From positions 1 through 18,734 of the forward strand of contig JAEOTX010000176.1 in the NCBI GenBank assembly GCA_016839605.1: a stretch of DNA of 18,734 nt. Direction: 5' to 3'. The notes under the pieces are model-generated. The model did not search any database. It was not told where the DNA came from and saw only the letters and a list, made by a program, of their open reading frames with translations. Of this stretch, positions 4,271-10,925 are shown piece after piece. The stretch comes from Candidatus Thorarchaeota archaeon. GTDB lineage: Archaea; Asgardarchaeota; Thorarchaeia; Thorarchaeales; Thorarchaeaceae. The translations under genes were made by a program, and so were the position numbers. The stretch's first letter is position 1, and each line of letters starts with the position of its first letter.

Positions 4271-4459
4271 TGACTACAGCTCCTTTTGCTAATCGATAGA
4301 ATGTACAGGCATGCTTTAAACTATGGCCCTTTATTCATCCACATATAGTCCGCCAAGGTAAGGCTCATATAGCTCGACAGTTCGCCCATGCGCAGGGCAG
4401 TCAAGAGACTGTCTCGGTCAACCCCAAAATAGCATCTAGGAAGGCATCAGGAGAATACA

Positions 4460-4807
4460 GTGGTGTCAGCCGTTCGAAAACCAATAACACCAAAGCCCGC
4501 AAGAGAAAGGGAGAAGGTCTTGGTGATACTAGAGGAGCAATGCAAACAGTGCGGCCTCTGCATCGAGTTTTGTCCAAAGAATGTTCTCTGCTTTGATATG
4601 TCCAAATACAATCGAAAGGGCTACCATCCCGTGACTGCATGTGATATCGATGCATGTGTGAACTGTGAATTTTGTGAGAGGATATGCCCTGACATGGCAA
4701 TCTTTTTGGCCAAAAAGGAAGAGGCCAGGAAAGCGTACGACGCCGGAGCAATGGAGGAGAACACCTCAATTCCCGAGTTCGATCGTGAGTCCAAGGAGGA
4801 GAACTAG
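4460..4807 (+). CDS. korD: 2-oxoacid:ferredoxin oxidoreductase delta subunit (2x[4Fe-4S] ferredoxin)
   Basis: CKQCGLCIEFCP and CVNCEFCERICPDMAI motifs with the NRKGYHP linker of KorD/VorD types; stop abuts the alpha-subunit ATG. Confidence 0.85.
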   Translation: MVSAVRKPITPKPAREREKVLVILEEQCKQCGLCIEFCPKNVLCFDMSKYNRKGYHPVTACDIDACVNCEFCERICPDMAIFLAKKEEARKAYDAGAMEENTSIPEFDRESKEEN

Positions 4808-5944
4808 ATGCCTGAGAGAGTCATGTTCACAATGGGAGACATTGCTTGCGCAGAAGGAGCTCTCAGTGCTGGCTGCAAATACTTCGGTGGATACCCAATC
4901 ACTCCTGCAACTGAGATTGCTGAGTGGATGTCAATACGAATGCCAGAAGTTGGCGGAGCATACGTCCAATACGAGGACGAAATTGCATCAATTACTAGTG
5001 TGATTGGAGCATCATGGACAGGTGCTAAGTCCATGACCGCAACCTCGGGGCCTGGAGTAAGCCTCATGCTGGAAGCTATCGGTCTAGCTGTTATGACGGA
5101 GACCCCACTCGTATTGGTCAACATCATGAGAGGTGGTCCAAGCACAGGGCAGCCTACTAAAGGTCAGCAGGGCGATGTGATGCAACCCAAGTGGGGTAGT
5201 CATGGTGATTATCAGATAATTGCCCTTACACCTGCGTCAGTCCAAGAAATGTTCGACCAGACAGTACAGGCATTCAACCTCTCTGAGAAATACAGAACTC
5301 CTGTGTTTGTCCTTGCTGATGAAACTGTAGGCCATATGCGAGAGCGTCTTGTGATTCCTGCTAAAAAGGACCTCAAACTCGAATATAGGAAGCTGGCTTC
5401 AGGACCTCCTGAAGATTACCTTCCCTTCAAGCCAGGTGATGATCTTGTACCACCAATGGCACTCCTTGGATCGAAGTATCAGTTCTATGCAACCGGCTTG
5501 ACTCATGATGAGCGCGGGTACCCGAGTGACAAAGAACACGTTCAGATAGAATTGATTACGAGACTCAATAACAAGATCATCCACAATGCTGACAAGATAA
5601 TTGATGTCGAGGAATTCATGCTGGACGATGCCAAAATCGGGGTCATTGCGTATGGAACTCCATCAAGAAGCGCTAAGAAAGCCATTAAGGATGCGAGAGA
5701 TGAGGGCATAAAAGTAGGAATGCTGCGTTTCAAGACTGTGTGGCCATTCCCAGAAGAGCAAGTAGCCAGGCTCGCGTCTCAAGTTGATCATATCATAGTC
5801 GCAGAACAGAATCTTGGTCAGATGTACTACATGGTGAAAGCAGAAGCAGCACCGACTCCTGTGCACCTGATGGCAAAGCCTGCAGGCATGCCCCAGCTTC
5901 CAAATGAGATTCTGGACAAGGTTAGAGAAATCAACTCGCTGTAG
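4808..5944 (+). CDS. korA: 2-oxoacid:ferredoxin oxidoreductase alpha subunit (KorA-like)
   Basis: GYPITPATEI, EDEIAS, TATSGPG, RGGPSTGQPT, TGLTHDERG, VWPFP and EQNLGQ motifs. Substrate specificity is inferred. Confidence 0.9.
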   Translation: MPERVMFTMGDIACAEGALSAGCKYFGGYPITPATEIAEWMSIRMPEVGGAYVQYEDEIASITSVIGASWTGAKSMTATSGPGVSLMLEAIGLAVMTETPLVLVNIMRGGPSTGQPTKGQQGDVMQPKWGSHGDYQIIALTPASVQEMFDQTVQAFNLSEKYRTPVFVLADETVGHMRERLVIPAKKDLKLEYRKLASGPPEDYLPFKPGDDLVPPMALLGSKYQFYATGLTHDERGYPSDKEHVQIELITRLNNKIIHNADKIIDVEEFMLDDAKIGVIAYGTPSRSAKKAIKDARDEGIKVGMLRFKTVWPFPEEQVARLASQVDHIIVAEQNLGQMYYMVKAEAAPTPVHLMAKPAGMPQLPNEILDKVREINSL

Positions 5945-6060
5945 CCATTCATACTTAAGCTAAATCCAAGAACAGGCGATGAATCAGATTGCTGCAAAAG
6001 CTCCATACTTCTTTGAGGAAGAGGACAGATTCCTATTCGGATGTGCCATTCACAGAAACA

Positions 6061-6576
6061 TCAGAAAAGCCAGTCATGGATACTTCGGGCGATCAGCTCA
6101 AAGGCTCTATTCACATTCTTGTCAAGTCTGACTGAGCTTTCGATATAGTTCATACCGAGCTTTGTTGCCATGTTCTGGCCTTCCTCGGTGGATACTACCC
6201 GTTCATCAACCAAATCAGTCTTGTTGCCTACTAGGAGTGATTGGTATTCTTCCACATTCTTGTCAACTTCAAGCTTCCAATCAGCAATCCCATTCAGAGA
6301 TTCCCAAGAAGTAACGTCATACATGAAAATGACTCCCTGAGTTCCACCATAGTAGTTAGCTCGAACTCTCTCCAAGAAGTCCTGTGATCCCAGATCCCAT
6401 ATTTGGAGGTTCACCGTGTTGTTGTCTATACGCATCTTCTTGTAGGCAAATCCGGTCCCGAGTGTTGGTGAATAATGCTCACGAAAGGCACCCGTGGAGT
6501 ATCGGATGATAAGGCTGGTCTTACCGACTGACGCGGCTCCAACGGTTACGACCTTGAAGAGATAAGTTGGACTCAT
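6061..6576 (-). CDS. Rab-like small GTPase (Ras superfamily) without a C-terminal prenylation motif
   Basis: G1 GAASVGKTS, G2 PT, G3 WDLGSQ, G4 NKTD, G5 ESSVR. RabF-like segments LGTGF, NLQIW, YYGGT and FMYDVT. ATG 6576 preferred; GTG 6591 possible. Confidence 0.92.
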   Translation of the reverse strand: MSPTYLFKVVTVGAASVGKTSLIIRYSTGAFREHYSPTLGTGFAYKKMRIDNNTVNLQIWDLGSQDFLERVRANYYGGTQGVIFMYDVTSWESLNGIADWKLEVDKNVEEYQSLLVGNKTDLVDERVVSTEEGQNMATKLGMNYIESSVRLDKNVNRAFELIARSIHDWLF

Positions 6577-6677
6577 TATCGGACTTCCCACGCTTTTACA
6601 GTATTCATTGAACAGGTTCTCAGTTAATAATTATCCTGACATATCTAGAATGCAAACTCGAAGTCTAATCGTCTTCT

Positions 6678-8255
6678 TCATCTAAAAATCCCTCTTGGGA
6701 GAGCGATTCCTAGTTGTCTGGAAAGAATCAGGAGAGTTAGCTTTGCAGCTTTCCCCAGCTTTCCATATTCGACCAAGAAACGCTCAAGACTCTCTGTCTT
6801 TTGCCACCCCACCCAGAAATCAGGAGGGATGTCTGCTAGCGGCACTCCAGTTGCATGGCAGATTCGAGAGATGCGCTCGGGCCCATAAATGACCTGCCCA
6901 CGAGTGACAAGGATATAGACCATCTCCTCTACGGCCTCGACATTGGTTGGCTGCAACGACCCAGTCTTGATTACTTTGACCTGAGACCATCTGTCGGCGC
7001 TGAGCTGTTCAAGCCAGAAAGTGAACTCCTCGAATCCTCTAAGGTCATATGAAGCATAACGGTCAATGATCCGATGATAGAAAGTTTGGGTTATACCAGC
7101 GATAAAACCATCTAATCGCTCTCGTTCCAGTCCTCCCACAAATTGGGCTAGCATCTTCATCCATTCACCATAAAGAAGCATGAGTCTACGATGTGTCAGA
7201 CCTTCCAGTAGTTTGAAGTCAAAGTCAACCGACCAACTCTCGTCTATGAATCGGAGCTGGCCTAGAGTTTCAGGAGTATCACTCCTCTTCATCACAGATC
7301 TTAGCACCTCTGTTGCTTGGGTTTGATAATGCTCCTCAGCAACGCGAAGCGCAGATTCCAGAGCTTCCTTCACCAATAGAATTCGCCTCTTCTCGGGGGA
7401 TAAAGCCTCAATGACTTCATTCTCGAGCAGATAGTCCATTACTCTGAGAATCTCTCTCTCGTCATAATATCCTCCGAGCTCAGCCAGGGTTTCTCGAACT
7501 GTTCGCCGTCCATCCATAAGTCCAGCAAGCCTCGGAATGACACCAATCATTTCAGGGTGCAGATTTCTTAGGTCTTCAGTTTCCTTGGATGTTGACTGTA
7601 CGTACCTCAAGAACTGGGTACGTGCACTCACAAAATCGTTGAAACTAAGTGTGTTGCGAAATCGAATGACACGATGAGCCCATAGTGTTGATGTTTCAAC
7701 AATCATCTCTCTTTCATCTATTCCACTCGCTTCTCTGATTTCCCGCACATTTCTAGAGCCATCAATGAAAGGAGCGATTACACTGTCAATGAGGGCAATC
7801 GCATCCGGCTTGATAGTGAAATATGGCACCCAATTATCGGAGAGCTCCTCAAAGGAGAGCTTTTTCATCACGCTCTCTCCGAAGGACTCCAGGTAGGCAT
7901 CAACAAATGATGTACCTAACTCGACCGATTTACATGCTGGAAGCCACTCAAGTTCAAACTCGGCTAGAAGAGAGTCCAAGATATCTGTGGTTTCATGAGT
8001 GAGTCGATGAACGCCAACGGATATCAGATTGGTCTGTACCCCACTTATCACAGTGAAAATTCGAGTTCCATAATCAATCTGGAATTGTGGTGCAGTCTGC
8101 TCAAATACCTCCTTCGAGAACATGTCGATAGCTGCGAAGAAGCTTGATGCCATCACGGGATCCATTCCAAACGCTCGTGGATCAAGCTGCATGTAGAATC
8201 GAGGGCTACCGCTCTTGTCTGTTATTAGAATAGCCTCGATTGAATGACCTGTGAT
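6678..8255 (-). CDS. Longin-domain + tandem winged-helix protein, NPRL2/Npr2 (GATOR1)-like
   Basis: N-terminal IEAILITDKSGSPRF...DPVMASSFFAAIDMFSKE is an Asgard-type longin signature. It is followed by WVPYFT...IAPFIDGSRNVREI and LMDGRRTVRET winged-helix repeats and a helical C-terminal region. Start is uncertain: RBS-supported ATC 8255, or ATG 8381, GTG 8366, ATG 8192. Confidence 0.72.
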   Translation of the reverse strand: MTGHSIEAILITDKSGSPRFYMQLDPRAFGMDPVMASSFFAAIDMFSKEVFEQTAPQFQIDYGTRIFTVISGVQTNLISVGVHRLTHETTDILDSLLAEFELEWLPACKSVELGTSFVDAYLESFGESVMKKLSFEELSDNWVPYFTIKPDAIALIDSVIAPFIDGSRNVREIREASGIDEREMIVETSTLWAHRVIRFRNTLSFNDFVSARTQFLRYVQSTSKETEDLRNLHPEMIGVIPRLAGLMDGRRTVRETLAELGGYYDEREILRVMDYLLENEVIEALSPEKRRILLVKEALESALRVAEEHYQTQATEVLRSVMKRSDTPETLGQLRFIDESWSVDFDFKLLEGLTHRRLMLLYGEWMKMLAQFVGGLERERLDGFIAGITQTFYHRIIDRYASYDLRGFEEFTFWLEQLSADRWSQVKVIKTGSLQPTNVEAVEEMVYILVTRGQVIYGPERISRICHATGVPLADIPPDFWVGWQKTESLERFLVEYGKLGKAAKLTLLILSRQLGIALPRGIFR

Positions 8256-8379
8256 TTCGGCCCACCTCGCTCCAAAATCTGGAATTGAATGAATATTAGC
8301 CTTCTTCGGGGATGCAAAGGAGTCCTCATCAACAACTGTTATATCTTGAAGGTGTCGAGAACGCACTCGTGGCCTCGTC

Positions 8380-9225
8380 ATGACCGAGTCAGACTCAATA
8401 TTACGACATCCGATGTCGAAATACATCAGAGAGGACCGGCAACCTTGGATATACTGTTCTGGGTGTTCGGTGGGTGTAGTCACACAGATGGTTGCTCGTG
8501 CAATTGACAATCTTGGACTCGACTTCACAAAGACCGTTGTGGTCTCAGGCATTGGGTGTACAGGGAGAACTTCTGGCTACTTCAAGACCGGGACCTATCA
8601 CACCACCCACGGAAGAGCCATTGCTTTTGCAGAAGGCGTAAAAATCGCCAATCCCGAATTGGAGGTCATTGTAGTGAGTGGTGACGGAGACCTCGCTGCT
8701 ATTGGAGGCAATCATCTCATTCACGCCTGCCGCAGGAACATCGACATGACGATTGTCTGTGTGAACAATTTCAACTACGGCATGACCGGTGGGCAGTTTG
8801 GTCCCACAACGGAACACGAGAGATATTCCCAGACCAGTCCAAGACCAGTTGGCAATGTTGAGCATCCATTCAACCTCGTAAAACTCGCAGCTTCCTCTGG
8901 AGCAACATTTGTTGCTAGATGGACTGCAGTCCAAGCGAGGAGAGCAACTAAATCGATTGAGACAGGCATTAAGAAGGAGGGCCTATCTTTCATCGAGATT
9001 ATAGGTGCATGTCCTACAGAATTTGGTAGGATGAACAGACTTGGAAATGGAGTCGAGATGCATCAACACCTCCTAGAAGTCGCAGAGATTCAGAATGGGC
9101 TTCCCGCACACGAAGCTGAGCTCCATTATGATACACGAATTGTGTGCGGTGAGTTTGTCAATATCGAGAAACCTGAATATACTGTCGTATTGACTGAGAT
9201 GAATGAGAGACTCAAGAAAGGGTGA
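8380..9225 (+). CDS. korB: 2-oxoacid:ferredoxin oxidoreductase beta subunit (TPP-binding)
   Basis: YCSGC, SGIGC, HTTHGRA, TPP motif GDGD...NNFNYGMTGGQ, and ACPT. Confidence 0.92.
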   Translation: MTESDSILRHPMSKYIREDRQPWIYCSGCSVGVVTQMVARAIDNLGLDFTKTVVVSGIGCTGRTSGYFKTGTYHTTHGRAIAFAEGVKIANPELEVIVVSGDGDLAAIGGNHLIHACRRNIDMTIVCVNNFNYGMTGGQFGPTTEHERYSQTSPRPVGNVEHPFNLVKLAASSGATFVARWTAVQARRATKSIETGIKKEGLSFIEIIGACPTEFGRMNRLGNGVEMHQHLLEVAEIQNGLPAHEAELHYDTRIVCGEFVNIEKPEYTVVLTEMNERLKKG

Positions 9226-9230
9226 TTTCG

Positions 9231-9788
9231 GTGAGTAGGTACGAAATCCGAATTGGAGGATTCGGTGGTCAAGGAGTAGTCACCATGGCTGTGGTGATGG
9301 GAGAAACCGCATCCTTGTTTGACAAGAAGTACGTTGTGCAGACTCAGTCGTACGGTCCTGAAGCCCGTGGGGGAGCAAGCAAGAGCGAGATAGTCATCGG
9401 AGAAGAGGAGATTGACTACCCAAAGGTTCAGGAACCGGATGTGTTCATAGCCATGAGCAGGGCTGCTTATCTGGAATACATCGATGGCCTCAAGGATGAT
9501 GGGATACTCATAATCGATGAAGACCTGGTGACGATAGAGAGCGATCTTCCAGAGGGTGTGACACTCTACAAAATCCCAGCTACCCGGATTGCTGATGAAG
9601 AAGTTGGCACAAAGCAGGCTACAAATGTAGTGATGATTGGGGCGTTCACAGCCATAACAGGAATGCTCTCGGTAAAGGGTCTAAAGAAGCGGATTGAGGA
9701 GCGATGGCCGCGATTCGTTGACACTAACCTCAAGGCGCTAGATTTGGGGATGAAAGCGGGCAAGGCAGCACTGGCTGCAAAGGAATAG
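9231..9788 (+). CDS. korC: 2-oxoacid:ferredoxin oxidoreductase gamma subunit
   Basis: IRIGGFGGQG, TQSYGPEARGGAS and NVVMIGA motifs. GTG 9231 follows a GGGTGA RBS overlapping the korB stop; GTG 9222 is an alternative. Confidence 0.9.
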   Translation: MSRYEIRIGGFGGQGVVTMAVVMGETASLFDKKYVVQTQSYGPEARGGASKSEIVIGEEEIDYPKVQEPDVFIAMSRAAYLEYIDGLKDDGILIIDEDLVTIESDLPEGVTLYKIPATRIADEEVGTKQATNVVMIGAFTAITGMLSVKGLKKRIEERWPRFVDTNLKALDLGMKAGKAALAAKE

Positions 9789-9789
9789 C

Positions 9790-10761
9790 TCAGAAGAAGA
9801 ACCCCAACATCAGTCCTAAGAAATAGGGCAACAATTCTACTGCATTATGTATTGAATGTAGCATGACTGGAAGCAATAGGCTTCTTGTACGTTCCCAAGC
9901 GACTCCGAAGATGAGTCCAATCTGTGCTTGAAAGAGAAATGATTGAGCGAGGGCAAAGCCGAAGATTTCAGGCGTCAAAGCGTAGATGCCATAGTATGAT
10001 TGGAATGCAACAATGTTGGTAAGCATGTGAGCAAAGCCGAAAATCAGTGATGCAATTAAGATGCCCATCAAACGTCCACTGCGCTCGGAAAAGTAAGATT
10101 GCAGCACAGTTCGAAATACTAGTTCTTCAGGTAGTGCTGCTGCGATAAGCGAAAAAAGAAAGCCAAATACGAGTGCAATCGGAATCAGAGCAAATGGATC
10201 GGTTCCCGGCATGAAATCAACAAGGATAAGGAATCTAGTCCATTCCCAGTAACCAATTTGTACGAAGACTAGGATTCCATAAGCTAATGTCAATACCACT
10301 GTGACAATCATATTCCGTTTGGAGCCAAGAGTAAATCCAATAACACTTAGTGATAGTCCCTTTATGTTTCGTAAATAGTAAAGAGGTACAACAAAGCCTA
10401 GTACAAAAACGAGCAGAGCAATAGACACACTGGAGAGGATTTGTCCGATAGGAGCCACAAGCAGACTCATAGAAAAGAACCAGAGTAGTACCAACACTGT
10501 TGTCTTTCCACTCAGACGGGGTATCTCAGAATATGATTGTGGGATTATATGGAGAATAAGGGGAATCAGAATTAGAAGAGGCATTGTCACGCCGAAAGGG
10601 AATATTGTGAAATTTCCCACAAGATAGAATGCCATCAATCCCGCAAGGGTGATGAGTCCGATTGCCACAACAGCCCACAGTATTGTAGCATTGCGCTCCC
10701 TGACCGACAGTTGAGTAATTGACCGACTCAATGGTCTATCGGTTTCGTTCCCTCCAGCCAT
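9790..10761 (-). CDS. CPBP/Abi (CAAX protease-like) intramembrane metalloprotease
   Basis: EELVFR, FGFAH and HSIHN catalytic motifs with many TM helices. ATG 10761 follows GGAGGTG. Confidence 0.88.
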   Translation of the reverse strand: MAGGNETDRPLSRSITQLSVRERNATILWAVVAIGLITLAGLMAFYLVGNFTIFPFGVTMPLLILIPLILHIIPQSYSEIPRLSGKTTVLVLLWFFSMSLLVAPIGQILSSVSIALLVFVLGFVVPLYYLRNIKGLSLSVIGFTLGSKRNMIVTVVLTLAYGILVFVQIGYWEWTRFLILVDFMPGTDPFALIPIALVFGFLFSLIAAALPEELVFRTVLQSYFSERSGRLMGILIASLIFGFAHMLTNIVAFQSYYGIYALTPEIFGFALAQSFLFQAQIGLIFGVAWERTRSLLLPVMLHSIHNAVELLPYFLGLMLGFFF

Positions 10762-10925
10762 GACAACCACCTCCGAAGCTCACACCCGTTCCTGTAATCA
10801 ATCATCCGGTCGAAGGAATGAAAATTGCATCAACCACAAACACCATAGCTCTGAACGCTACACAAACCTGGAGAATTTCGTTAGCTGCGGTGAAGACGTT
10901 ATGAAGAGGGTGAAATAGAGCGGAA

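Follow-up and report, generated by a model that had tools for sequence, protein, structure and literature searches.

The contig JAEOTX010000176.1 of a Candidatus Thorarchaeota archaeon (assembly GCA_016839605.1) was analysed over its entire length of 18.7 kb, hereafter called the window; the genome (3.1 Mb, 80% complete) is a fragmented metagenome assembly of 259 contigs. Genes for the four subunits of a 2-oxoacid:ferredoxin oxidoreductase were found on the plus strand in two pairs, korD-korA and korB-korG, and the interval between korA and korB (5945-8379, 2435 bp) holds two minus-strand genes only, one for a Rab-like GTPase and one for an NPRL2-like protein, here called X (Table 1). This anatomy agrees with the original prediction, made from the letters alone, which had described both pairs as tightly coupled and parted by two opposite-strand genes. 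The TAG stop codon of korD abuts the ATG of korA, with AGGAGG just ahead, and korB and korG overlap as GTGA; both pairs are translationally coupled. The alpha and beta subunits of this enzyme, encoded by korA and korB, form an obligate heteromer.

Judged by Pfam, the domain set of a four-subunit 2-oxoacid:ferredoxin oxidoreductase is complete, with POR_N and domain II in alpha, a thiamine diphosphate domain in beta, POR in gamma and two [4Fe-4S] clusters in delta. Among the NCBIfam models, NF006412 was passed by korA (545.9 bits, cut-off 411), the best matches of korD were OorD and OGOR_delta, both under cut-off, and the equivalog models of beta (247 bits, cut-off 364) and gamma (215 bits, cut-off 235) were not reached either; korB matched PRK09628 with an expectation value (E) of 2e-73, likewise under cut-off. 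The four domains and the gene order are shared with operons of the KorDABG/OorDABC type, whereas here alpha and beta lie 2.4 kb apart and the beta-gamma pair has a promoter-like element of its own.

Table 1. Features of the split kor locus in the window. Domain matches are to Pfam, with their expectation values.
Feature	Position	Strand	Remarks
korD	4460-4807	+	delta subunit, two [4Fe-4S] clusters; Fer4_7 3e-12
korA	4808-5944	+	alpha subunit; POR_N 1e-66, PFOR_II 7e-21
korA/GTPase convergent gap	5945-6060		between two stop codons
Rab-like GTPase	6061-6576	-	171 residues; Ras 2e-45
GTPase/X gap	6577-6677		101 bp
X, NPRL2-like protein	6678-8255	-	525 residues; assigned by fold and profile
Shine-Dalgarno-like GAGGTGG of X	8262-8268	-	6 nt before the ATC start
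X promoter-like motif	8287-8312	-	TCCCCGAAGAAGGCTAATATTCATTC; TATA-like TAATATT at 8298-8292
korB promoter-like motif	8322-8345	+	GTCCTCATCAACAACTGTTATATC; TATA-like TTATATC at 8339-8345
korB	8380-9225	+	beta subunit, thiamine diphosphate binding; TPP_enzyme_C 3e-32
korG	9222-9788	+	gamma subunit, named korC in the original prediction; POR 8e-38

Comparison of gene order in related genomes showed that the split is kept in 22 species, while other genera have a contiguous operon. Among 79 loci from species-representative genomes, 22 were split, 18 of them complete and four cut by contig ends. The order korA, GTPase and X (both on the minus strand), korB, korG was present in at least 14 genomes of the same genus and in one genome of another genus (G020), and was found again, with an extra epimerase gene, in two further public contigs (L077, L080). 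The korDABG genes were contiguous, with the same flanking genes, in G021, G018, G019, G022 and G023 and in two other orders (G025, G035). The split is the derived state, other genera and orders having kept contiguous korDABG. All split contexts fell into one clade of the X tree (support 99/99), which points to a single event behind them.

Alpha and beta each shared 80-91% identity with their counterparts from sister genera whose operon is contiguous, and the identity ranks of the two matched; they are therefore regarded as cognate. A second, distant korB paralogue is present on another contig of this genome. Ratios of nonsynonymous to synonymous substitution rates (dN/dS) against the nearest relative were 0.041 for korA (versus G009), 0.017 for korB, 0.037 for korG, 0.039 for X and 0.034 for the GTPase, and strong purifying selection acts on all of them. 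Saturation of synonymous sites (proportion of synonymous differences, pS, about 0.8) was seen between split genomes that are further apart. Taken together, these values indicate that the arrangement is old and its genes are in use. A chimeric contig, alpha and beta subunits from different enzymes, or an enzyme in the course of being lost might have produced the same picture, and the fragmented state of the assembly, like the second korB paralogue, would fit such an artefact or decay. But the same junctions were found in more than 20 independent assemblies, one of them a single-contig genome, sister genera have orthologues of both halves in a contiguous operon, and dN/dS is only 0.02-0.04. Recurrence, orthology to contiguous operons and purifying selection rule out misassembly and non-cognate subunits, and artefact or decay as a whole can be given practically no credence.

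The absence of a transposase, an integrase or a target-site duplication had been pointed out from the sequence, and this was borne out. No transposase or integrase gene lies in the korA-korB interval, and the direct or inverted repeats flanking the island were only chance-sized matches of 12-21 nt, with no terminal repeat or target duplication. Searches for Rfam families and tRNAs found none.

The length of the korA-korB interval varied among lineages. It was 0 bp in G021 and G018, 14 bp in G019, about 150 bp in G022, about 190 bp in G023, about 528 bp in G024 and about 641 bp in G017, where an open reading frame (ORF) for a 75-residue membrane protein lies inside. As against the 2435 bp of the window, it reached about 3.0-3.5 kb, with extra genes, in G004, G020 and L077/L080. 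The extra inserts were an ORF related to tetratricopeptide repeat proteins in G004 and an epimerase gene in G020, and in L077 and L080 an epimerase gene on the opposite side of the two minus-strand genes (hereafter the X-GTPase cassette). The junction is permissive, other lineages having taken up other inserts there. In two genomes, G017 (contigs C25/C48) and G024 (C10/C11), contigs break exactly between korA and korB and their ends overlap by 55 and 77 bp (loci L093, L061, L092 and L045). On account of these overlaps the assembly graph is seen to branch exactly at the korA-korB junction, and this suggests structural variation at the level of strains.

An NAD-dependent epimerase/dehydratase-family gene also accompanies the X-GTPase cassette in several lineages, its side and strand varying (L065, 9217-10197; L077, 12190-13152; L078, 12229-13251; L080, 12185-12955), and is absent from the window.

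The divergent intergenic region between X and korB extends over 124 bp (8256-8379). Ahead of korB, at a distance of about 35 nt, lies the motif CATCAACAAC-N2-TTATATC (8327-8345). It contains the TTATAT at 8339-8344 that the original prediction had singled out as a possible promoter element of korB-korC, divergent from X; the element is indeed present there, as part of a motif of 19-25 nt that is kept in about 20 genomes, far above chance. The motif was kept in all species of the same genus, across synonymous-saturated distances, and it also occurs ahead of korB in the unsplit operons with a spacer of 150-641 bp (G023, G022, G024, G017). Operons in which korA and korB overlap, or come close to doing so, do not have it (G021, G018, G019 and other orders). 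In a genome-wide search the korB site was the sole exact match; 12 looser matches were obtained versus three in the reversed control, and no regulon was evident. Within the window, two other weak matches were found with up to three mismatches.

On the minus strand, X is preceded by the motif GCTAATATT, itself preceded by CCGAAGAA, and 40 bp separate its TATA-like element from that of korB. The X motif was found about 35-40 nt ahead of X in every context (split, solo, elsewhere and in Lokiarchaeota), though more diverged in the lineages where the cassette flanks the cluster. From the conservation and position of both motifs, and from their likeness to the TFB-recognition element (BRE) and TATA box of archaea, we infer that they are promoters. 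This upstream motif of X, AAGAAKGCTAATATT (8287-8312 in the window, and ahead of X in L096-L147), is kept from Thorarchaeota to Lokiarchaeota, between which the protein is only 44% identical; this exceeds what a generic TATA box needs, and the motif may mark the site of a specific regulator.

Two readings of the split had been put forward, a non-contiguous operon and a split with divergent promoters. Non-contiguous operons, in which genes parted by an opposite-strand gene are nevertheless carried on one RNA, have been described in Staphylococcus aureus. They share with the present locus co-oriented enzyme genes separated by opposite-strand genes, but here both the downstream half and the intervening genes bear conserved promoter-like motifs of their own, and a single transcript would be hypothetical. 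Such a transcript would carry korD-korA-korB-korG, run antisense through the GTPase and X genes and allow reciprocal antisense control. The order and orientation of the four kor genes, kept on either side of the island, would be in line with it; no strong terminator is visible after korA either, and in some relatives the stop codons of korA and the GTPase gene are only 43-51 bp apart, so that some overlap of 3' transcript ends is likely there. Nevertheless, korB has a conserved motif of its own that unsplit operons carry too, a deeply conserved motif precedes X, and the convergent gap is without a conserved element. Moreover, inserts of varied orientation in other lineages fit independent units better than an antisense read-through of 2.4-3.5 kb. 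A non-contiguous operon thus seems very unlikely and found no support in our data, both motifs being conserved, while the split with divergent promoters fared better of the two. The convergent gap itself measured 43-281 bp among relatives, with neither length nor sequence kept, and showed no clear terminator after korA. A scan for bacterial-type promoters and terminators is uninformative for an archaeon, and its sole match, at the 3' end of X, falls inside coding sequence.

The explanation that fits best, and that we consider probable, is an autonomous cassette lodged within a spacer that bears a promoter, each half of the enzyme having a transcript of its own. The two-gene X-GTPase cassette, equipped with its own promoter, would have settled between korA and korB, on the opposite strand, in the ancestor shared by one clade of Thorarchaeota. 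The korB-korG pair would be read from its own promoter at CATCAACAAC-N2-TTATATC (8327-8345), with korD-korA keeping the upstream promoter. We infer that alpha and beta are made from two mRNAs instead of one, and the enzyme would survive in this way. X and the GTPase gene would be transcribed in the other direction from the TAATATT element 40 bp away, making up a compact back-to-back promoter region of 124 bp. Any regulatory tie between cassette and enzyme would act through this shared region or through the proteins. The split looks like a long-standing, tolerated insertion in one Thorarchaeota clade.

The order of these events can be approached through five species in which the cassette borders the same cluster of about 20 kb, beyond the acyl-CoA ligase genes and a hyp204 homologue and in the same orientation; their kor operon has a spacer and the korB motif but no split. 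X of this flank arrangement forms a separate clade of the X tree. In a tree of ten cluster proteins, obtained by a quick search only, the genera with coupled korA and korB were basal and the spacer genera were sister to the group holding the split lineages. In the korB plus korG tree, the base was not resolved and the outgroup branches were long. We lean slightly towards a spacer with an internal promoter having come first and the cassette having moved in afterwards, since a cassette inserted where stop and start codons overlap would have deprived korB-korG of both transcription and translation.

Several points weigh against this account. The promoter assignments draw solely on conservation, position and BRE/TATA likeness. 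On the cluster tree the order is ambiguous, because a spacer that was there first and received the cassette, and a cassette that was there first and moved out leaving a spacer, need equal numbers of steps. Plus-strand read-through from korA would also count against it, improbable as we hold it to be. Finally, the cassette is found within one and the same cluster in 22 split species and at its edge in five flanking species, two arrangements that a purely neutral model does not predict.

The extent of X had to be revised from that of the first reading. Its ORF is open to 8552, into korB, but 16 relatives place the true start at 8255 (codon 8253-8255, ATC). In most relatives the protein begins M-T-G/S-H-x-IEAILITD. 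The start position is occupied by ATC in the window and by ATT in six close species (L010-L015); in other species ATG, GTG or TTG is found there or close by. Upstream in the same frame, one species has a stop codon (TAA) directly ahead and three are without any ATG, GTG or TTG, while the next downstream ATG would drop a stretch that is kept as protein with synonymous changes. In addition, AGGTGGGC, of the GAGGTGG type, is located 6 nt ahead of the start and is kept in seven species with ATC or ATT. The starts and stops of relatives, the conserved stretch and AGGTGGGC together define X as a protein of 525 residues, for which ATC is the likely start codon. Starts at 8552 or 8381 were rejected, since the sequence is not kept as protein and relatives show stop codons or lack a start codon at those places.

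The model of X (predicted local distance difference test, pLDDT, 81.8) comprises a longin domain, two winged-helix-like units and a C-terminal helical domain. The longin domain shows the order strand-strand-helix-strand-strand-strand-helix, and residues 3-138 reached Z scores of 11-12 with longin/roadblock proteins. In a Foldseek search the 14 best matches of X were all NPRL2, NPRL3, Npr2 or Npr3 chains of GATOR1/SEAC, the best with E of 2e-6 over about 345 columns. Template modelling (TM) scores with NPRL2-family chains were only 0.20-0.27, meaning that the domains are placed differently. NPRL2 was also the best solved relative of the profile built from alignment A2 (E of 0.002), residues 143-229 of X being aligned to 174-265 of NPRL2. 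Searches of Pfam (E up to 10) and NCBIfam gave no match to X, including the curated NPR2/NPR3 models. Fold and profile support X as an NPRL2-like protein over its first 300 residues, and the likeness claimed in the original prediction is upheld to that extent. As regards a catalytic arginine finger on the longin domain, no invariant arginine column was found in residues 1-110 of X in alignment A2, where R19 and R27 vary to K or L, as judged from the sequence alignment only. X occurs in most Thorarchaeota and a few Lokiarchaeota genomes, in agreement with Liu et al. 2020 (bioRxiv 10.1101/2020.10.19.343400), who had already reported the NPRL2-like family with this distribution.

The helical domain (residues 286-525, window 6678-7400 on the minus strand) was modelled with a pLDDT of 90 when folded alone. 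No close solved relative was obtained for it: the best Foldseek match had E of 0.25, and the best VIA-align match (Z of 6.9, root-mean-square deviation of 3.6 over 73 residues) was below noise for helical folds, and no fold is assigned. The motifs best conserved in X are located in this domain, as is the face predicted to bind the GTPase. In having a longin domain at the N terminus and an NPRL2-type winged-helix region after it, X is like NPRL2/NPRL3. It differs from them by this additional domain of 240 residues, by having a Rab-type GTPase neighbour without roadblock domain, by a predicted contact through the helical domain and by the lack of a Pfam NPR2/NPR3 match.

The GTPase gene likely starts with the ATG at 6576 and not with the GTG at 6591. 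The best solved relatives of its product were Rab1, Rab3 and Rab8 (E from 1e-37 to 1e-31) and the 'Thorarchaeota Rab' 7ezb. The match to Gtr1_RagA reached only E of 0.009 and a roadblock domain is lacking, which sets the protein apart from partners of the Rag/Gtr type. In alignment A3, made of 20 orthologous and paralogous sequences, the G3 motif WD[LM]GSQDF was invariant, the canonical DxxGQ was absent, and no copy ended in a cysteine motif for lipidation or prenylation. Thorarchaeota and Lokiarchaeota copies were 72% identical.

X and the GTPase appear as a pair well beyond the kor locus. In nearly all loci where both were seen, X is followed after 60-117 bp by the GTPase gene, and this includes a paralogous family with X split into two ORFs. 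The pair is kept from Thorarchaeota to Lokiarchaeota, with the X motif present in all contexts. The model of the X-GTPase complex scored 0.73, against 0.00 for the best of three controls; this score was reached by 58 of 80 solved complexes and by two of 110 mismatched pairs, counts that are only rough here since our own alignments and ligands were used. The runs agreed in at least 79% of contacts, with a partner pLDDT of at least 88. In the model, the two switches of the GTPase (I and II) and its interswitch face residues 359-374, 406-437 and 451-455 of X, within the helical domain and not the longin domain, and the invariant GEWMK-LAQF and DLRGFEE-WLE motifs of X lie in the contact region. 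The model supports, and does not show, binding of the GTPase by X. The pair had been called a GATOR1-like module, which is overstated, and the label does not suit it: the GTPase is of the Rab type and not of the Rag type, and the predicted contact is made by the helical domain, away from the longin domain.

In the Asgard operon of LAMTOR1-like, Rab-like GTPase and DENN genes (Liu et al. 2020), too, a small GTPase gene and a gene for a longin/roadblock-type regulator are conserved neighbours, but the regulator family and the GTPase subfamily differ, and the X-GTPase pair stands inside a metabolic operon. According to Tran et al. 2024, GTPase and longin/roadblock genes are generally not in operons in a cultured Lokiarchaeon.

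Variants of the pair were also encountered. In several genera, away from the kor cluster, a paralogous module has X split into ORFs of about 420-435 and about 105-111 residues, followed by a GTPase paralogue (50-58% identical; L069, 9461-11661; L070, 6996-9149; L074, 7617-9782). Small GTPase genes lie both before and after X in one Lokiarchaeota contig and in one deep-branching relative, and the gene downstream is orthologous to the window GTPase (L071, 9067-13143; L083, 9329-12183). Some genomes that have X in the split locus also have a second X paralogue (62-64% identical) with no GTPase gene beside it (L072, 8932-10689; L073, 9034-10632; L081, 3017-4606), and in one contig it lies between NifU-like and cysteine-desulfurase-like genes. 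Orthologous X-GTPase pairs are located elsewhere in about 15 species and paralogous pairs in about 24. Peptidase and amino-acid-metabolism genes were seen as neighbours of such pairs, which is a lead only, without a base rate.

Beyond the kor genes, the window can be described as an amino-acid fermentation neighbourhood. Pfam and NCBIfam identified a radical SAM enzyme, HdrBC-like proteins, a winged helix-turn-helix (wHTH) protein and two acyl-CoA ligases, and a 2-hydroxyacyl-CoA dehydratase trio is present, with HadBC as best NCBIfam matches. In the divergent region between korD and the wHTH gene (4330-4380), CATATAG occurs twice, 24 nt apart; these may be promoter or operator elements of the upstream operon half. 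Between korG and the dehydratase activase gene, a membrane protein of the CAAX-protease family is encoded on the minus strand (9790-10770), found only in the closest relatives of the window (L099, L010) and not in more distant split genomes.

This neighbourhood raises the question of whether the linkage is selected. The NPRL2-like protein and its GTPase could be a switch, either acting on the amino-acid fermentation cluster or regulated jointly with it, the back-to-back promoters coupling their expression. Such a linkage would be compatible with an autonomous cassette in a promoter-bearing spacer, to which it would add a function. The cassette lies in or next to the same cluster (oxidoreductase, 2-hydroxyacyl-CoA dehydratase, acyl-CoA ligases) in two arrangements and 27 species. 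By our own arithmetic, which assumes no bias towards local moves, random relocation into a 20-kb cluster of a 3-Mb genome would have a chance below 1%. The arrangement has outlasted synonymous saturation, the two TATA-like elements are just 40 bp apart, and the cassette shares a 124-bp region with korB. Eukaryotic NPRL2, moreover, acts in amino-acid sensing (Liu et al. 2020, bioRxiv 10.1101/2020.10.19.343400). Other points count against it. Both arrangements correspond to two clades of X which may descend from one ancestral neighbourhood, giving at most one or two independent events, and the entire cluster is syntenic across the family anyway. X-GTPase pairs are located elsewhere in many species (orthologous pairs in about 15, paralogous pairs in about 24), unrelated genes were also taken up at the junction, and the korB motif has no evident regulon in this genome. 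We regard selected linkage as possible but rather doubtful.

A link of this kind to 2-oxoacid catabolism, echoing the eukaryotic role, had been suggested in the first reading of the locus. As the data stand, its sole basis is position, and this position is traceable to one or two ancestral events. An even bolder possibility, to which we give little credence, is that the NPRL2-like protein and the GTPase would be a nutrient switch tied to amino-acid fermentation, sensing or controlling flux at the 2-oxoacid branch point and co-expressed through the back-to-back promoters. As such it would be a prokaryotic forerunner of GATOR1-type signalling, operating through a helical domain that would bind the GTPase.

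Asgard archaea encode many eukaryote-like GTPases and longin/roadblock proteins, and it is hard to tell which regulator pairs with which GTPase. The NPRL2-like family was known, and here one of its members, X, is tied to one GTPase by strict adjacency, by a promoter-like motif kept from Thorarchaeota to Lokiarchaeota and by a predicted complex. In one clade this pair sits in an amino-acid fermentation cluster, which provides a testable pair together with a metabolic context. The locus also offers a natural case in which the alpha and beta genes of an obligate heteromer have been uncoupled over the long term, and an internal promoter appears to have allowed this uncoupling.

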